From: a virus
Lineage: Duplodnaviria; Heunggongvirae; Uroviricota; Caudoviricetes
Reading direction: 5' to 3' (one strand)
Virus record (IMG/VR): IMGVR_UViG_2519899835_000003
Length of the DNA stretch: 64,000 bases
Part shown: piece after piece, positions 43,114-56,187 of the stretch
How the letters are laid out: every line of letters starts with the position of its first letter
Position numbering within the stretch: position 1 is the first letter of the stretch
Notes under the pieces: generated by a model
The model's database searches: none
What the model saw: only the letters and a program-made list of their open reading frames with translations
Told to the model about the DNA's origin: nothing
Position numbers and translations under genes: made by a program

Positions 43114-43597
43114 GAATCCTCCCGGCCGGGATAATATTGTGAGTAAAATAAGGAGCGGGCTGAAGTCCGGAAGTTACAGGACAATGGCAGAAGGGAGACT
43201 ACAGCCCGCAATTCGAAAAAGGTCGCGCAGTTGCGCAGAGTGATTACTATGGGGTATTATTCGCCAGCTGAAATATTACTTCACGTTTCATTGTTCATTC
43301 CTTGCCGCCCGCGTCTCCCAGCGCGGGCTTTTTTGTCCATAAGAAAGCCCCTCCGGAGAGGGGCTGGAGAGTGGCGCTATGTGCCATTGCATGGTGCCGG
43401 GTGCCTCCCGGTGAGTTCAGCCCGGTGCCACTAAACCCGCGTCATTCTCGTTTTGATAATCAGAGATTATACCGTCACCAGTCGCCCCTCCGCTCAGGGG
43501 GATTCACCATGCAGTTTTTTCTAACAAATTCTCATCCGGGCAGACAACATTCAACTGACTTAATTGTGAGGTATGTAACATTCCCGTTGAACGGATA

Positions 43598-44862: not shown

Positions 44863-45149
44863 GACTTAATCTTCCCCTCCTTCAGCAATATCGCCTGCGT
44901 CCTGATCACGCCTTCCAGGTGGTAAAGTCTGGCGTCGTTGTTGTCGAGAATTCGGGTGCGTCGGTCGATCTCCGCGTGGCAGTCACTACAAGCCCATGCA
45001 CCGATCAGGTCGTCAGGCTTCATTCCCGTTCCGCAAATTCCAGCCATCCGGTAATGTGCCAGAACTGTCGTTTCAGGATTGCCATTGCATACGCCGTAAA
45101 TCCGTACCTGGCATTCTCTGCCGCGCGCTTCTTTGCGTAGGTTAGCCAT
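44859..45149 (-). CDS. YbcO-like (DUF1364) nin-region protein
   Basis: 96 aa; RECQVRIYGVCNGNPETTVLAHYR...CSDCH cysteine cluster. Confidence 0.75.
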   Translation of the reverse strand: MANLRKEARGRECQVRIYGVCNGNPETTVLAHYRMAGICGTGMKPDDLIGAWACSDCHAEIDRRTRILDNNDARLYHLEGVIRTQAILLKEGKIKS

Positions 45150-45877
45150 TAAGCAGCCTCCCCTGTTACTTTCAGCATTCCGTTATCGAGCGGCTTTCTG
45201 GTCAGCCACTGTTGACCACGCCCGGTGATTTTTGTGGTGAACGAGATCTGTATTCCGTGATTTGTATTGACCGCTGTTTCTTTCACTGTGAAATAGCCGC
45301 GATCCATATATTCCTGCATTGGCACATTGCGCCGGGAACCTGAAGCAATAAGGATTTTGTGATCGCGCATCCACGCAAACAGTTTGTTTGGACCAATACC
45401 AACAACCTTTGCAAAGTTTCCAATCAAAATTCCGCTGGCCTCGCCAACTCGATCGGCAAACTCAACTTTAGGTGCTGCGAGAGCAAGCTGTTTCTCCAGT
45501 TCAGCCTTCTGGTCTTCAAGGTCGGCCGCAAGGCGCAATGCCTCAGAAAAGGTTTGTGGTATTTTCGCGGTTGCCCCTTCAAGCTCTCGCCAACGGTCAA
45601 CAAGACGAGCGGTGAATTCCGGCGACAATTGGGCGACGACAATAATGCTGTCTCGCTTACCTTGTTCGCCTTCGAAGACGTAAGCCTCGACACTACGGCG
45701 CAGTCCTAAGTTATTGATTTTTTCGAAAACCTGCAATGCAGGAAGTTGAATAACTCCAGATTCAGCCAGGCGCTCTATTGATATTTTTACGTTATCTGGA
45801 CGACTCCCCACCAACTCAGCGATTTCAATGCTGGTCATTTTGATGATGCTGCTATTTATCAGCTCATTCATTGTCAT
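45149..45877 (-). CDS. Rha-family regulator with KilA-C antirepressor domain
   Basis: N-terminus MTSIEIAELVGSRPDNVKISIERL; start may be 45838. Confidence 0.65.
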   Translation of the reverse strand: MTMNELINSSIIKMTSIEIAELVGSRPDNVKISIERLAESGVIQLPALQVFEKINNLGLRRSVEAYVFEGEQGKRDSIIVVAQLSPEFTARLVDRWRELEGATAKIPQTFSEALRLAADLEDQKAELEKQLALAAPKVEFADRVGEASGILIGNFAKVVGIGPNKLFAWMRDHKILIASGSRRNVPMQEYMDRGYFTVKETAVNTNHGIQISFTTKITGRGQQWLTRKPLDNGMLKVTGEAA

Positions 45878-45945
45878 GTCCTCTCATATTGAAAATTCAG
45901 CAATAAAAAACCCAGCCGAAGCTGGGTTTGTTAAGTTGTCAATTG

Positions 45946-46629
45946 TCAGTAGCGATGCAGTGAAGGCGGCAACTCTTTGTTCTTAAGCCTTTCCCATGCC
46001 AGAAGGTTCGTCGGCCCGTCAGGCTCATAAATATCTATATCCCGCGTGTGATTAATTAAAACGCCCCTCGCCCTCCCGATGATATACGAGAACTCATAGC
46101 CGTAGTCGTGGCATATGCCGGAATAGCCAGACTGAATCAGTTTTAATGCGGGATACAACTCACGGAACAATGCCTGTGAGCGGTTGGCATAATCCCACAG
46201 CCATACAAGGCTGTCTGTTTCTTTTGCGGAAAGCCCGTTGGGCTTCTTCTCTTGTTTGCCAGTATTTTTCTCGCACTGGCTGAAATAGCAGTCTTCCAGT
46301 TTTTCGAACACATCCCACGCCTGATCGGTTTCTAGCATTTTGGCGTGACGGGCTGCGCCTCGTTCTGTCCAGAGGATGAGGGAGCGAACGTTACGGGCAA
46401 TTTTCACAGAGTAGTTAAAAGCTACTCTGTGCTTGAACTCACGTAAAGTTTCACCTTCAAGTTTGAAGAAGTGTTTTTCCTCAATGAAACGACCTTTGTT
46501 TTCGTGGTGATTCTGGCGAATACGAATAGCTTCTGTGCCGTAAAGGTGCGCCAAAAGTTCGGTAGTGATAACGGGGATCTGCTTGTAAGTAATCGTGGAG
46601 AGTGTTTCAACAGAGATTTGAGTTGTCAT
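45946..46629 (-). CDS. ORF6N (Bro-N-like) domain antirepressor
   Basis: N-terminal ~110 aa shared with the 47548-48213 paralog ([20 protein letters not shown]...[20 protein letters not shown]). Confidence 0.7.
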
Positions 46630-46890
46630 AATGACGCCCTCGAGTGGTTTCTTAATAACTCACCACCGACGACGCCAATCGTCTGGTGGTGAACTGTGCA
46701 GGGTTGGCGTAACCGGGAAACCGACCGGCGCGGATCTCTCCGCCCCCACACAGCCCACCATAATTCAGATGTGCGCGTGCATACGACAATAAAAAACACG
46801 CTCGCGGCGTGTATCTGTCGCGGTCTCTATCCAGGACGCCAATCCCGACGCCAGATTTTGCTGGCGCGTGAGGAATATAGCCCCGAATAA
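46630..46890 (-). repeat. Copy 1 of a ~260-bp structured leader upstream of an ORF6N gene
   Basis: Aligns with 48214-48475; shared hairpins with compensatory base changes; hairpin plus T-run at 46789-46812. Confidence 0.6.
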
Positions 46891-47082
46891 ATCATCACGT
46901 CAATCACCTTGTTTTCCTCGCACGATGTCTTAGCCACCGGATATCCCACAGGTGAGCCGTGTAATTGAAGGCTTTAACGTCAGATTCTTTTGGGATTGGC
47001 CTGGGTTTATTTCTGGAACGTTTCGTTGGAAGGTAATTGCAGTTTTCACAGACTATATCGGTAATGCTTCGTCGCTGTCGTC

Positions 47083-47493
47083 TCATTCATACCTCCTGTC
47101 GGTAAATCTGACACCCTGCTCCACAGCCCAGGAAGTTGTGTACTCAATCAGGCTTGCCATACGCTTCACGCTCATCTGCGCACTGCTTTCGCGGATATTG
47201 ACGTATTCACCTTCAAGACCAGGCAAAACATCAGCTTCCTGTTTTGTCGCCACGGCATGACCGCTGATTAACAAAACTTTCCACTGTTCTGGTTTTAGCC
47301 ATCTGCCGCACCACTGAACCTGTCGGGAGATATCAGCGACCATCGCGTGAAATTTGGCATTTTGATCGAGATTCCGCTTGTAATCGGTGATGCGGATCGT
47401 AACGGGTTTGTCTTTATCGAGAGTTGTTGCAAGGATGGCGTTAATGGCGAATTGTTGCTGCTGCTTACTTCGGAGGAAGATAGTCTGGTTCAT
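47083..47493 (-). CDS. ninB: Recombination protein NinB
   Basis: 136 aa; [24 protein letters not shown] resembles lambda NinB. Confidence 0.85.
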
Positions 47494-47547
47494 TATTCCC
47501 TCTCACTGGATTTTCCCAACAAAAAAGGAGCCGAAGCTCCTTTAGTT

Positions 47548-48213
47548 TCAGAATTCAAATTGTCTTGCCCGCAGGCTTTTCAGCATTGGCATGGCCCGCT
47601 GGATAACGGAACTTGACATGTCGAGACGTGTTACCTCCCTCAGTAGCGCGTCTCTGTTCTTCGTCACCATGTAGATGGTCTCAAACGCAATGTCATACAG
47701 CTTGTTCGTGTATGAGGAGTTCAGCTCTTTCATAATGGGATACAGGTGTTTGCTGATGTCCTGGGCTTTTTCCATCCAGAGCTGCATGTAGCAAAGGAGG
47801 ATGATTTCTTCGGCTGTGAATTGTGGCTGAATCTGCGGCTGCTGTTCGGTTGGTGCTGTTTTTCCCTGGCTGAAATAGCAGTCTTCCAGTTTTTCGAATA
47901 CCTCCCACGCCCGATCGGTTTCGAGCATTTTTGCGTGACGGGCTGCGCCGCGTTCTGTCCAGAGGATGAGGGAGCGGGCATTTTTACCAACTAACCCGAT
48001 TGTTTCGGGTCTGTTCTTAAACTCGCGTAATTCGTTTTTTTCAATTTTAAAGTAATGCTTTCCGGGCATGAATCGCGTCGTGTTGTTCAGAAAGTTATCA
48101 GAAATGTTTTTGATTTTTGTTCCGTAAAGGTGAGCCAACAGTTCAGTAGTAATTACGGGGATCTGGTTATAGGTAACAGGGGAAAGGTTTTCGACAGAAA
48201 TTTGAACAGCCAT
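47548..48213 (-). CDS. ORF6N domain antirepressor paralog with the shared C-terminal domain
   Basis: N-terminus like 45946-46629; C-terminus like the 2929-3558 protein. Confidence 0.75.
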   Translation of the reverse strand: MAVQISVENLSPVTYNQIPVITTELLAHLYGTKIKNISDNFLNNTTRFMPGKHYFKIEKNELREFKNRPETIGLVGKNARSLILWTERGAARHAKMLETDRAWEVFEKLEDCYFSQGKTAPTEQQPQIQPQFTAEEIILLCYMQLWMEKAQDISKHLYPIMKELNSSYTNKLYDIAFETIYMVTKNRDALLREVTRLDMSSSVIQRAMPMLKSLRARQFEF

Positions 48214-48475
48214 AATGACCTCGCGTTTCGATAATTTTTACCTCGCCACCGTCAGGTGCTAATCATCGTGGTGGCGAACTGTGCGGGGTTAGCACTACCG
48301 GTCGAAACATCCGGCGAGCCTTTCGGCTCCCCCACACAGCCCGCCATAAATCGCGAATGTGACTGTGCTTAGCGCATAAAAAAACCGCCAGCGCGGTTAT
48401 GCACCGTTTCGATATCCGGGGTGCTAATCCCGACGCCAGGTTTTGCTGGCGCGTGAGGAATATAGCCCCGAACAC
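48214..48475 (-). repeat. Copy 2 of the structured leader upstream of an ORF6N gene
   Basis: Homologous to 46630-46890; hairpin plus T-run at 48378-48398. Confidence 0.6.
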
Positions 48476-48555
48476 GCGACGTTGTCAAACTGATGGCATT
48501 GCAGATCCCTACGCAATGTAACACTATGTGTTATACATTAATAACGGAACAAAAA

Positions 48556-48926
48556 ATGCGCATTTTTAAAAACGCCTGGTTTGAGCGATTTGCACGCAAA
48601 ACAAAATATCCGACCAATCACTGCGCGAAATTGTTAAACAGGCTGATAACGGGCTTATCTCAGCAAACCTGGGTAACGGCGTTATCAAGCAACGTCTGCC
48701 ACGAGTCGGTGGCGGCAAATCTGGCGGTTATCGCACAATCATTTTCTATCGCGTCGGCACAAGGGCCTTTTTCGTATATGCATACGCAAAAAATGAACGT
48801 GAAAATATAACCGCTACTGCGGAAAGTGCATTTCGGAAGGCGGCTCCTCACGTACTCAATCTAACAGATGAACAACTGGCACAACTGATTCTACAGGGTC
48901 AGTTTACGGAGGTACCCAATGAGTAA
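48556..48926 (+). pseudogene. HigB/Gp49-like RelE-superfamily toxin gene disrupted by a frameshift
   Basis: N-terminus MRIFKNAWFERFARK in one frame; toxin-like C-terminus GGGKSGGYRTIIFYRVGTRAFFVYAYAKNERENIT in another frame with no start codon; shift in an A-tract near 48600. Confidence 0.55.
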
Positions 48927-49236
48927 AAATTACCGCAGTGATGCGCTTGCATCCGTACATGAAATGATGGAATCGCTTCATGATATCGGCGCAGTAACGA
49001 AACAGACTATGCGAGAATTCGATGAAACTTGTCTCCAGCCAGCGCCGGTAATGTCTCCGGAAAGGATCCGTGCACTGCGCGAACGAGAGCATCTGTCTCA
49101 ACCTGTTTTTGCCAGATACCTCAACGTCAGTAAAAACCTGATATCAGACTGGGAACGTGGTGTAAAACGGCCGGGAGGTGCCGCTCTTCGCCTTCTTTCA
49201 GTCGTAGAGAAAAACGGAATCCAGGTAATATCATGA
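48919..49236 (+). CDS. HigA-like XRE-family HTH antitoxin
   Basis: 105 aa; LSQPVFARYLNVSKNLISDWERGVKRPGGAALRLL; start overlaps the toxin stop. Confidence 0.7.
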   Translation: MSKNYRSDALASVHEMMESLHDIGAVTKQTMREFDETCLQPAPVMSPERIRALREREHLSQPVFARYLNVSKNLISDWERGVKRPGGAALRLLSVVEKNGIQVIS

Positions 49237-49286: not shown

Positions 49287-49781
49287 TTAGTTTTGCTGTT
49301 CTATTTTAAGCTTGATAGTTTCATACAAAACAATAGTTGCGCCTGTTTTACATAATTCCCGGCTGTCATACGCACGAGACCAATAACACAACCAGTTCTC
49401 GAGATCTTCTCGAGTATAGGTTTTGCAGGCCAGTCCCTCTGCCATTTCCACGATTTCATCGCCTGGTGCTGTTAACTCATAGCCATTCAACAACAAGAAG
49501 ACATAACCAGCCATCATAGCTGTTCGTTTGTTTGCATTAGCAAATGGATGATTCTGAATCAGACTTTCAATCAATACTGATGCCAGTACAAACATGTCAT
49601 TAGTCTGTTCATACCATCGAACCATGCTGGGACGAGACTGAGAAGAACTTAAATTATCAACACTCAGCACACTAACAGGTTCATCTGGTGTTTGAAGCTC
49701 AATTAAAAGGCGATTAATTTCGGTAAGATCATCAAACGAAAGGTAGTGCACTCCTTCAACAATCTCAGCCATAGAGCACAA
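49287..49781 (-). CDS. Fic/Doc-family toxin
   Basis: HPFANANKRTA motif; TTG at 49781, ATG at 49772. Confidence 0.8.
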   Translation of the reverse strand: MCSMAEIVEGVHYLSFDDLTEINRLLIELQTPDEPVSVLSVDNLSSSQSRPSMVRWYEQTNDMFVLASVLIESLIQNHPFANANKRTAMMAGYVFLLLNGYELTAPGDEIVEMAEGLACKTYTREDLENWLCYWSRAYDSRELCKTGATIVLYETIKLKIEQQN

Positions 49782-50179: not shown

Positions 50180-50335
50180 TTACTCCTCAGGTTCGTAAGC
50201 TGTGAAGACAGCAACCTCCGTCTGACCGGTTCGGATTCGTACCTCGCATAGGTCTTTCCTCGTTACCAGTGCCGTCACTACGACGGTAATACAGATGACG
50301 ATCAGGGCGACTAACATCGCCTTTTGCTGCTTCAT
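50180..50335 (-). CDS. hok: Hok/Gef-family type I toxin
   Basis: MKQQKAMLVALIVICITVVVTALVTRKDLCEVRIRTGQTEVAVFTAYEPEE, near-identical to HokC/Gef as recalled. Confidence 0.9.
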   Translation of the reverse strand: MKQQKAMLVALIVICITVVVTALVTRKDLCEVRIRTGQTEVAVFTAYEPEE

Positions 50336-50580
50336 AGCCTGCTTCTCCTTGCCTTTCGGCGCGTAAGAGGCTAACCTACATGTGTCTAGCATGAAATTGG
50401 CCTCAGATTAATGTTAGGCGTCTTGCAGGACGCGTAATGTTAACTGGGGTTTTTCTCTGTCTGCCTTACGGTGGCATGCCCGAGGCAGACAGCCTCAAGC
50501 ACCCGCAGCAATTCTACTTAACTCTCGCTTTACCGCAAACCGTTTTTACCCGATATGGGAATTCCCATATCGTAATGAAT

Positions 50581-55479: not shown

Positions 55480-56187
55480 ATGAAAACATTCGCAGAAAGA
55501 CTAAATGCCGCCATGAGTTCAGCCGGGTTGTCACAAGCACAACTTGCAGACATGGTGGGGGTATCACAACCAGCCATACAAAAGATGTCATCTGGTAAAA
55601 CAACCGGATCACGTAAAATGGTCGAATTAGCCAACGCGTTAAGAGTTCGCCCTGAATGGCTAAGCTCTGGTATAGGGTCAATGAGACCACAGAGCGCAGA
55701 AGAGCCATCTAATGCTCGGGAATCATCTTTAAAAGCTATCGCCTGGGATGATCATCAAAATGATAATGAAGAATTTGTTGCGCTCCCCCTTCTAAATATT
55801 TCACTTTCAGCTGGCGGAGGAAGTTGTGCATTGGAGGAGTCCGCAGAATTCTCTCTAGTTTTTAGGCGCTATTACCTGAAAAAAATGGGAGTTCCAGAAA
55901 AAGCGGCAAAGTTGGTCAGGGTTGTTGGGCAAAGCATGGAGCCAACACTCCATGATGGTGATGTGGTGGGGGTAAACACGCAAGATACGAGCATCAGGGA
56001 TGGTAAAACATATGCAATTTGCCAAGCTGATTTGTTAAGGGTAAAAACGCTCATAGCCACGCCAACATCGGTAATTATCAGATCGATAAACCGCGAAGAG
56101 TATCCTGATGAAGTAATGAACAGAGAAGAATTCTACAAAAACGTAAGAATCATAGGGCGAGTGTTCTGGTCATCACATAGCTGGTAA
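55480..56187 (+). CDS. cI: CI-like repressor (HTH plus LexA-like S24 peptidase domain)
   Basis: N-terminal HTH QAQLADMVGVSQPAIQKMSSG; C-terminal VGQSMEPTLHDGDVVGV with Ser/Lys dyad. Confidence 0.9.
   Translation: MKTFAERLNAAMSSAGLSQAQLADMVGVSQPAIQKMSSGKTTGSRKMVELANALRVRPEWLSSGIGSMRPQSAEEPSNARESSLKAIAWDDHQNDNEEFVALPLLNISLSAGGGSCALEESAEFSLVFRRYYLKKMGVPEKAAKLVRVVGQSMEPTLHDGDVVGVNTQDTSIRDGKTYAICQADLLRVKTLIATPTSVIIRSINREEYPDEVMNREEFYKNVRIIGRVFWSSHSW

Follow-up and report, generated by a model that had tools for sequence, protein, structure and literature searches.

In the immI operon of phages P1 and P7 (c4 - icd - ant1/2), a C4-family RNA lies in the same-strand leader of the antirepressor genes, from which it is freed by RNase P processing to repress ant in trans. 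Two of its loop segments are the complement of sites lying next to the ribosome-binding site, further copies of these sites lie upstream, and related phages differ in specificity. In the Gifsy-1 isrK-orf45-anrP locus, an isrK-family short terminated RNA, a read-through leader and a processed downstream RNA are combined with an antirepressor-like gene; the short IsrK activates via coupling to orf45, and expression of AnrP, encoded behind IsrK, induces Gifsy-1 (PMC4825925). [quoted passage not shown] Ant-Roi tandems are known from Stx phages (Fogg 2011; Smith 2012), and deletion of ant from Phi24B reduces pR' activity after induction to 27-56% while leaving superinfection unaffected (PMC3064807). 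Finally, c4 and isrK elements have been found beside Bro genes in APSE and in PICIs (PMC7313666, PMC10111431), and domain shuffling is a long-known trait that defines these Pfam families, the "Bro network", according to the portion of PMC10111431 that cites Iyer et al. 2002.

The stretch of DNA analysed here (the window, 64,000 nucleotides) contains one 933W-like E. coli prophage without stx, inserted in ynfG, which is split into a stub at 2408-2491 and a remainder past intD. It holds all four open reading frames that an initial annotation had described as antirepressor-type genes, and they were found at the positions claimed; Pfam agrees with the assignment of one AntA-type and two ORF6N proteins. 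The four genes and the repressor of the prophage are as follows.

2929-3558, plus strand: AntA gene, 209 aa, AntA and P22_AR_C domains (Pfam), adjoining attR
45149-45877, minus strand: Roi homologue, 242 aa, KilAC/ANT C-domain and weak Rha-like N-domain
45946-46629, minus strand: ORF6N-a, 227 aa, ORF6N and P22_AR_C (P22-Ant subtype)
47548-48213, minus strand: ORF6N-b, 221 aa, ORF6N and P22_AR_C (RARQFEF subtype)
55480-56187, plus strand: CI repressor, HTH_3 and Peptidase_S24, self-cleaving type

All four proteins match at least one Bro-network Pfam domain above the Pfam cut-offs. Three of them share one C-terminal family, P22_AR_C, in two subtypes, and their N-domains are ORF6N or AntA, never P22_AR_N. 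The fourth had been listed as a Rha/KilA-C protein: its ANT/KilAC match is strong (5.5e-32), but the Phage_pRha match, at 20.1 bits, stays below the threshold of 29.9. Its sequence is 83.5% identical over the full length to the HK542 roi-type gene and 98% identical to CP-1639 roi, it sits in the nin region between ant and DUF1364/rusA, as expected of the HK022 Roi type with no notable difference, and it has no RNA leader of its own. The studied relative, HK022 Roi, is a DNA-binding protein that affects lytic growth and is not a shown antirepressor (PMC3430580). In sum, three mosaic "antirepressor" genes, each with a predicted antisense-RNA lock of its own, are accompanied in this prophage by one Roi-type DNA-binding gene. 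Such a gene family and its regulation are already well known in phages, so that the finding is real, yet ordinary.

Upstream of every P22_AR_C gene lie, in this order, a predicted promoter, a short RNA with its terminator (isrK/a1b1) and an antisense RNA of the C4 type, and each cassette has promoter-like and terminator sites of its own. Rfam models for isrK, c4-a1b1 and C4 score above gathering 5' of both ORF6N genes. The elements of the ORF6N-a cassette (cassette A) are listed here.

46874-46903, minus strand: promoter-like site TTGACG-18-TATATT, directly 3' of ninE
46791-46880, minus strand: c4-a1b1/isrK short RNA and terminator, above Rfam gathering
46842-46836 and 46827-46821, minus strand: b1 UUGGCGU and a1-like GAGACCG, inside the short RNA
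46682-46765, minus strand: C4 antisense RNA, Rfam 66.7 bits (gathering 45)
46722-46717 and 46710-46704, minus strand: C4 segments a' GGUUUC and b' ACGCCAA
46637-46678, minus strand: downstream targets b2 UUGGCGU (46678-46672) and a2 GAAACC (46651-46646)
46641-46637, minus strand: Shine-Dalgarno (SD) sequence GAGGG, adjoining a2
45908-45929, minus strand: intrinsic terminator separating the ant gene from roi

The ORF6N-b cassette (cassette B) has the following elements.

48459-48488, minus strand: promoter-like site TTGACA-18-TATATT (11/12)
48378-48465, minus strand: c4-a1b1/isrK short RNA and terminator, above Rfam gathering
48427-48421 and 48412-48406, minus strand: b1 UUAGCAC and a1 UCGAAAC, inside the short RNA
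48267-48351, minus strand: C4 antisense RNA, Rfam 75.1 bits (gathering 45)
48308-48302 and 48295-48289, minus strand: C4 segments a' GUUUCGA and b' GUGCUAA
48219-48262, minus strand: downstream targets b2 UUAGCAC (48262-48256) and a2 UCGAAAC (48231-48225)
48222-48219, minus strand: SD GAGG, abutting a2
47524-47543, minus strand: intrinsic terminator immediately 3' of the stop codon

For the AntA gene (cassette C), the RNA resembles Rfam sRNA-Xcc1 with 49.5 bits (E 3e-8), slightly below the gathering score of 53 bits.

2689-2718, plus strand: sigma-70-like promoter TTGACA-18-CATACT in the AntA leader, kept in the 933W L0142 leader
2732-2773, plus strand: short isrK-like RNA region, with the same layout in related loci
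2732-2737, plus strand: upstream target copy CGUCAG, then a terminator hairpin and U-tract at about 2745-2773
2804-2888, plus strand: C4-like antisense RNA (Rfam sRNA-Xcc1), hairpin-2 loop CUGACG at 2857-2862
2912-2920, plus strand: target CGUCAG (2912-2917), overlapping SD AGGAG (2916-2920) of the AntA gene

In all three cassettes, loops of the antisense RNA are complementary to the ribosome-binding region of their own gene, at the exact coordinates given; in cassette C, the a-type site alone is clear and b-type pairing is weak. Since RNAduplex on whole RNAs ignores internal structure and was uninformative, loop-versus-target matching with permutation controls was used instead, on 81 C4 cassettes from viral contigs. 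These carry 17 a' and 10 b' variants, and the match to the own target spans 6-11 nt at a and 7 nt at b in 22 of 23 combinations, against a non-cognate mean of about 4.4 nt. None of 10000 permutations reached the observed pairing in any of the four site/target sets. Relatives of cassette C were collected by a 14-mer scan, which returned mostly chance matches, a structural filter leaving only 23 of 120 loci; 15 sRNA-Xcc1-like cassettes covary likewise (0/10000 permutations), and 933W L0142 agrees. Covariation over about 40 related cassettes supports the predicted pairing of loops with targets. Judged by their sequences, the three locks differ in specificity, and cross-regulation is not expected from their different loops, although a GAAAC common to the a sites of cassettes A and B would make some cross-talk possible.

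Set against immI of P1 and P7, the likeness extends to the AntA gene, whose N-domain belongs to the family named for P7 AntA/AntB. In contrast, ORF6N replaces the AntA N-domain in two of the cassettes, cassette C has an sRNA-Xcc1-like RNA, and a lambdoid (933W-like) genome holds three cassettes where the plasmid prophage holds one. A conserved coupled peptide of the icd/orf45 type was sought by comparing cassettes A and B, and none was found: ORFs of 31-33 codons start from the AUG that C4 conserves, but the frame is not kept and the stop lies about 40 nt 5' of ant. Hence, the mechanisms of P1 and of Gifsy-1, where orf45 is present, are probably not transferable in detail. Compared with Phi24B and VT2-Sakai (Fogg 2011; Smith 2012), ORF6N-a occupies the same place in the nin region, with roi following it, and shows about 82% identity to VT2-Sakai ant; what sets the present prophage apart is a further ORF6N cassette on the upstream side of ninB. 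Among 5426 complete E. coli genomes, just 9 have this two-cassette arrangement in full. The AntA gene beside attR and 933W L0142 are positional homologues, with the same position, length (209 aa), TraR/DksA gene neighbour and leader architecture and 71% identity in the AntA N-domain; the two differ in RNA loop and target (CUUAUUUG/CAAAUAAG in 933W versus CUGACG/CGUCAG in cassette C).

The initial annotation had also taken the domain sharing among these genes as a sign of recent swapping. Homology is far above chance by BLASTP (AntA versus ORF6N-b, E 3e-42; ORF6N-a versus ORF6N-b, E 1e-63; AntA versus ORF6N-a, E 1e-9). The C-domain ending in LRARQFEF, common to the AntA gene and ORF6N-b, is homologous but not near-identical: 57 of 93 residues agree (61%), nucleotide identity is 63%, falling to 42% at third codon positions, and identity of about 90% is confined to the first ~60 nt and the last ~20 nt. 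The two ORF6N proteins do share their N-domain and differ at the C-terminus (22% identical), yet both C-termini fall in P22_AR_C. Closer partners exist in other phages: the ORF6N-b C-domain is 89% identical to that of 933W L0142, which is only 68% identical to that of the resident AntA gene, and the C-terminal 104 residues of ORF6N-a are 83% identical to P22 Ant, whose N-domain is P22_AR_N. With synonymous sites of the C-domain near saturation and closer module relatives elsewhere, a recent exchange among the genes of this prophage is not indicated; they are, by this divergence, old paralogues. In the population, recent swaps do take place.

The domain combinations seen support a modular, shuffled make-up of these proteins. 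ORF6N occurs with at least four different C-termini, the RARQFEF C-domain with AntA or ORF6N, and Bro-N with P22_AR_C, while one leader type is shared by proteins with ORF6N, Bro-N or Rha N-domains and various C-domains. The ORF6N domain has a conserved block at its 3' end.

46279-46389, minus strand: conserved block of ~110 nt, about 93% nucleotide identity to 47869-47979

The crossover point of natural chimeras lies within this block, at 46333-46322/47923-47912. Four loci (L011, L030, L073 and L103) join a cassette-B leader and N-domain (99%) to a cassette-A C-domain, and L011 and L030 change over from cassette-B to cassette-A sequence within the block (173/187 and 201/202 informative sites). 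Deletion between resident cassettes was considered as the origin of L011-type chimeras and rejected, as the ninB- and ninE-side flanks and the cassette-A position are kept, which makes these chimeras replacements by double crossover.

The reading that we consider probable is that the prophage carries three independent, RNA-gated antirepressor cassettes of the immI type, with a Roi gene beside one, and that N-domain exchange is ongoing in the population. Each cassette would run from a promoter through a short terminated RNA with target-site copies and a C4-type antisense RNA to 'Ant', a Bro-network protein with an AntA or ORF6N N-domain and a P22_AR_C C-domain, and end in a terminator. By analogy with P1/P7 c4-ant and Gifsy-1 IsrK-AnrP, C4 would be cut from the leader, pair with two sites beside the SD and block Ant translation in the lysogen, and the short upstream RNA, bearing the same sites, could titrate it. 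Once CI is cleaved and a surge of transcription from pR reaches the nin region, or on phage entry into a cell without a matching C4, Ant would be made. It may then bind repressor and, as measured for the nin-region Ant of Phi24B, hasten commitment to lysis; we infer repressor binding from the P22 and Phi24B relatives, and CI (55480-56187) is the presumed target in cis. As this CI has an S24 domain, Ant would be dispensable for starting SOS induction. Mosaic proteins would be products of homologous recombination within short conserved stretches on either side of the leader and N-domain, among members of the phage population and not between copies in this prophage.

That four antirepressors arose by recent swapping within the prophage and derepress several co-resident prophages in trans, as first proposed, seems quite unlikely. 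The domains are truly shared (Pfam, BLASTP), P22 Ant does hit non-cognate repressors (PMC3064807), Fels-1 FsoA, produced only once Fels-1 is derepressed, induces Gifsy-2 (PMC3121763), and a self-cleaving CI would leave the Ant proteins free for another purpose; nevertheless, the age of the resident paralogues, their closer partners in other phages and the identity of the fourth gene as Roi all speak against it. Nor is there an SOS link: two matches to the LexA box CTGT-N8-ACAG were found across the window, a count not above chance, and none is close to these genes, so that wiring of the Gifsy type is not indicated. The LexA-controlled Gifsy antirepressors GfoA and GfhA are, moreover, small, unlike the two-domain proteins of 209-242 aa found here. 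We find it similarly improbable that 'antirepressor' is a mere inherited label for DNA-binding or nuclease-related Bro-network regulators acting in lytic growth in the manner of Roi. Network N-domains are indeed seen as DNA-binding or nuclease-derived, with PLE CapR acting as a repressor (PMC10111431), HK022 Roi affects lytic growth (PMC3430580), and its homologue here shows 83-98% identity to roi genes annotated elsewhere; against this stand the resemblance of the ORF6N-a C-domain to the biochemically defined P22 Ant, the promotion of derepression by its Phi24B near-orthologue (PMC3064807), and C4-type gating, a hallmark of the P1/P7 antirepressor operon.

A rather unlikely reading, though less so than these two, is that RNA immunity itself is the selected function: resident C4 RNAs would silence incoming ant genes, three cassettes would widen the excluded range, and the Ant proteins would matter chiefly at infection, not induction. 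Free reassortment of the 17 x 10 loop variants is what diversifying selection on specificity should produce, every cassette has a predicted promoter that does not depend on pR, and P4 CI and P1 c4 are precedents for immunity RNAs; however, these points are compatible with the RNA-gated cassettes preferred above, and deletion of ant from Phi24B left superinfection unchanged (PMC3064807). Going beyond those cassettes, we tentatively suggest, as somewhat short of probable, that the three locks (two C4-type, one sRNA-Xcc1-type) are mutually orthogonal, that their a/b loops form a hypervariable, reassorting code which follows the N-domain, and that sRNA-Xcc1 represents a second C4-like class of repressor for Bro-network genes. 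If so, the phage could evade immunity in several independent layers, or set up such layers itself, and polylysogens would hold an immunity network richer than CI alone implies.

Mosaic antirepressor-like genes are standard in lambdoid and Stx phages, and the finding as first written matters little. For annotation and for work on the induction of Stx-type prophages, its use lies in reading such genes as RNA-gated cassettes, whose RNA loops may predict which of them cross-regulate, and the conserved block closing the ORF6N domain would explain the origin of new N/C combinations. Searched against the sequences in the PDB, none of the four proteins gave a meaningful match, and a single-sequence AlphaFold2 model of ORF6N-b was unusable (mean pLDDT 34). 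RefSeq E. coli genomes carry identical genes, labelled 'phage antirepressor Ant', 'ORF6N domain-containing protein' and 'phage antirepressor KilAC domain-containing protein'; the RefSeq start of the Roi homologue lies 6 nt later, at 45871.

The four antirepressor-type genes proposed in the initial annotation are all present and identical to annotated RefSeq genes. In matching E. coli strains they are annotated as follows:

2929-3558, + strand: phage antirepressor Ant (the AntA-type gene)
45149-45871/45877, - strand: KilAC domain-containing antirepressor (the Roi homologue)
45946-46629, - strand: phage antirepressor Ant (ORF6N-a)
47548-48213, - strand: ORF6N domain-containing protein (ORF6N-b)

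Pfam assigns AntA and P22_AR_C domains to the 2929-3558 protein, ORF6N and P22_AR_C to both ORF6N-a and ORF6N-b, and ANT/KilAC to the 45149-45877 protein, whose Phage_pRha match falls under the curated cut-off. All four belong to 'anti-repressor' families in PHROGs.

The window is a piece of E. coli chromosome and shows no differences from NCCP15648 and FORC_069-type strains outside the tail-fibre/IS1 stretch at 20.5-26.9 kb. Inserted in ynfG is a 933W-like short-tailed lambdoid prophage with an N4-gp56-type capsid, an LPD38 giant protein, a nanS-like esterase, Q, nin genes, CI/Cro, Bet/Exo and an integrase. The 5′ part of ynfG remains as a stub at 2408-2491; the remainder comes after intD, beyond 64000, in the matching genome. 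Neither stx nor tRNA genes occur between Q and the nanS-like esterase; thus, this is a stx-less 933W-type prophage. The AntA-type gene adjoins attR, as does L0142 in 933W, with equal length and a TraR/DksA neighbour in both. Given this L0142-like position and the single ynfG-inserted element, all four genes belong to one phage genome.

Several further features of this locus were recorded. The sole departure from NCCP15648 is 20496-26925 (tail-fibre/Lom region), where NCCP15648 carries an IS1 insertion and the window is about 1.3 kb longer. As ynfG encodes the 4Fe-4S subunit of the YnfEFGH selenate reductase, its splitting by the prophage interrupts that operon. A 40-nt element (2564-2603, + strand), located between the stub of ynfG and the leader of the AntA gene and close to where attR is expected, holds two ATGCAAAGCTTTGT copies that could form a 17-bp stem. 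FORC_069 and relatives, with an otherwise near-identical prophage, carry an extra insertion of about 1.4 kb in the attR-proximal arm (the region matching window 2300-5200), which includes a 'BRO family protein' gene, a fifth member of the Bro network.

Rfam detects two elements on the coding strand directly 5′ of each ORF6N gene, isrK/c4-a1b1 and C4 antisense RNA, both above gathering. Each of these cassettes (A for ORF6N-a, B for ORF6N-b) is preceded by a strong promoter-like site, and an intrinsic terminator immediately follows its stop codon. The leaders share 79% identity, and they differ in both a′, the second-hairpin loop of the C4 fold, and b′, the single-stranded junction after that hairpin. 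Each cassette's a′ and b′ have their complements within that cassette's leader, at sites named a and b from P1 usage by analogy only:

Cassette A: a′ GGUUUC, a sites GAAACC; b′ ACGCCAA, b sites UUGGCGU
Cassette B: a′ GUUUCGA, a sites UCGAAAC; b′ GUGCUAA, b sites UUAGCAC

One b site lies in the upstream hairpin and one just after C4; one a site is directly 5′ of the Shine-Dalgarno (SD) sequence, and the second copy falls in the stretch separating the upstream hairpin from the isrK terminator. The Rfam c4-a1b1 model spans the b-type hairpin as well as the conserved first hairpin; the upstream a-type copy lies in the linker that precedes the isrK terminator. The conserved 5′ end of C4, UUAUGG, also opens a 31-33 codon ORF (46762-46660 and 48348-48252, - strand); these ORFs recall Gifsy-1 orf45, but their frame is not conserved between cassettes A and B. 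The Roi gene lies after the cassette-A terminator and has no RNA leader.

The AntA gene (cassette C) has a leader of the same layout:

2689-2718, + strand: promoter-like site
about 2745-2773, + strand: terminator ending a short RNA
2804-2888, + strand: RNA matching sRNA-Xcc1 (Rfam 49.5 bits, gathering 53, E 3e-8)

The last of these has the outer-stem/two-hairpin shape of C4. Two CGUCAG sites complement its hairpin-2 loop, CUGACG: one at 2912-2917, which overlaps the SD AGGAG, and one at 2732-2737.

A pattern search of viral contigs, built on the C4 scaffold, yielded 108 related cassettes with 82 distinct leaders and 23 (a′, b′) combinations (17 a′ and 10 b′ variants). A perfect 7-nt b′ complement is found both upstream and downstream in 22 of the 23 combinations, and a′ complements adjoining the SD measure 6-11 nt, versus a mean of about 4.4 nt for non-cognate pairings. 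When loops were shuffled among leaders, the observed mean was reached in none of 10000 trials for any of the four loop/target sets. The a and b variants reassort; a′ AUGUUUCGA, for example, is combined with three different b′. In the sRNA-Xcc1-like class (loci L126-L222 in viral contigs, and L243 at 60.5-61.3 kb of 933W), the loop complements an SD-proximal site and an upstream copy in 15/15 distinct loci (0/10000 permutations), as in 933W L0142, where loop and target read CUUAUUUG and CAAAUAAG. This complementarity to the next gene's SD-proximal region and its upstream copy suggests that the sRNA-Xcc1 family works like C4 antisense RNA. These are findings at the level of sequence; by analogy with P1/P7 c4 (summary in PMC7313666), P4 CI/seqA (PMC10111431) and Gifsy-1 IsrK/STnc1160/AnrP (PMC4825925), the C4-type RNAs are probably made and active in trans.

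The C-terminal domains shared by the AntA-type protein and ORF6N-b, previously described as near-identical, are indeed homologous in a domain-level alignment (BLASTP E 3e-42), with 93 residues aligned gaplessly and both ending LRARQFEF. However, identity is 61% in protein, 63% in DNA and 42% at third codon positions, reaching about 90% only over the first ~60 nt (FT.EEIILLCYMQLWMEKAQ) and last ~20 nt. These values point to old paralogy rather than a near-identical copy. The two ORF6N proteins (BLASTP E 1e-63) do have a common N-domain, 67% identical, and their C-termini differ as proposed, at 22% identity, although both are P22_AR_C and not different domains; AntA matches ORF6N-a over this domain at E 1e-9. 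A block of about 110 nt ending the ORF6N domain (46279-46389 versus 47869-47979) is about 93% identical, third positions included, while the N-domain outside it shows 45-75% identity.

Closer relatives are found in other phages. Over its whole length ORF6N-a shares about 82% identity with ant of VT2-Sakai and its Stx-phage relatives. Its C-terminal 104 residues have 83% identity with Ant of P22 and epsilon34, and its N-terminal 118 match, at 97.5%, a gene with a different ending that lies towards the left end of Stx2a phages. The ORF6N-b C-domain is 87-89% identical to AntA-type 933W L0142, versus 61% to the resident AntA-type protein. The AntA-type gene shares 83% identity with the attR-proximal gene of Shigella phage 75/02 Stx, and the KilAC protein 83.5-98% with roi-annotated genes of HK542, PA44 and CP-1639. 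Hence, the modules are drawn from a pool common to lambdoid and Stx phages, with no recent exchange between the resident copies.

Across phages, the N-domains behind the same leader type are ORF6N, Bro-N or Phage_pRha, linked to one of two P22_AR_C subtypes or to another C-terminus, and the two N-types and two C-types of the window are found in all four possible pairings. Four loci (L011, L030, L073 and L103) are clean chimeras, in which the flanks are those of the cassette-A position, the leader and N-domain are of B type (99% identity with the window), and an A C-domain and roi follow. Informative sites are B-type at 173/187 before the crossover and A-type at 201/202 after it, placing the crossover between 46333 and 46322 (B: 47923-47912), inside the conserved block. 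From this structure and position, the unit exchanged is the regulatory RNA plus the N-domain, bordered on one side by the conserved segment of promoter and first hairpin and on the other by the conserved ORF6N end. The recent swapping claimed for this prophage thus holds in the population but not between the resident copies, with their 61% C-domain identity and closer partners elsewhere; the chimeras are its best support, though the events lie outside this prophage.

Onto this observed anatomy of genes and RNAs, with its complementarity, covariation and recombination joints, a regulatory model may be placed. In the lysogen, each cassette's own promoter would yield C4, masking the ant ribosome-binding region, while the short upstream RNA with the same sites could soak up C4. 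Either a surge of leader transcript from pR upon CI cleavage or entry into a cell without matching C4 would allow Ant to be made, and Ant would remove the remaining repressor. Since CI carries HTH_3 and Peptidase_S24 domains, we infer that Ant is an accelerator or anti-immunity factor and not the trigger; no LexA box was found near the antirepressor genes. P22 Ant binds c2 and lambda CI, and the Phi24B nin-region Ant is read from pR before qut and raises late-promoter activity after induction (27-56% of wild type upon ant deletion, 64-82% upon complementation) (PMC3064807). AnrP induces Gifsy-1 (PMC4825925), and HK022 Roi is linked to lytic growth (PMC3430580).

That the Ants also derepress other prophages in trans is plausible by analogy with Fels-1 FsoA (PMC3121763). 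A purely DNA-binding role would suit Roi and some Bro-network members, but it fits less well with the P22-Ant-like C-domain and C4 gating, while an immunity function of the RNAs themselves is compatible with the regulatory model above.

Mosaic antirepressor genes are already known, given the identity to RefSeq genes and earlier descriptions of Ant then Roi in Stx phages (PMC3430580), and of C4 and isrK adjoining Bro genes and sRNA-Xcc1 adjoining an ORF6N gene in APSE phages and PICIs (PMC7313666, PMC10111431). Modestly new are the three differently keyed cassettes in a single prophage (9 of 5426 complete E. coli genomes have the two-ORF6N arrangement), the sequence evidence suggesting C4-like behaviour of sRNA-Xcc1-type RNAs, and the mapped crossover block.

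Elsewhere in the prophage, an Rfam STnc100 sRNA (165 bits; 43335-43540, - strand) lies just 3′ of the Q antiterminator gene, and addiction modules cluster at 48.6-50.6 kb, in the interval separating the replication genes from the nin region:

about 48657-49236, + strand: RelE/ParE-type toxin and HTH partner
49287-49781, - strand: Doc-type toxin
50330-50504, - strand: hok/sok (sok RNA)
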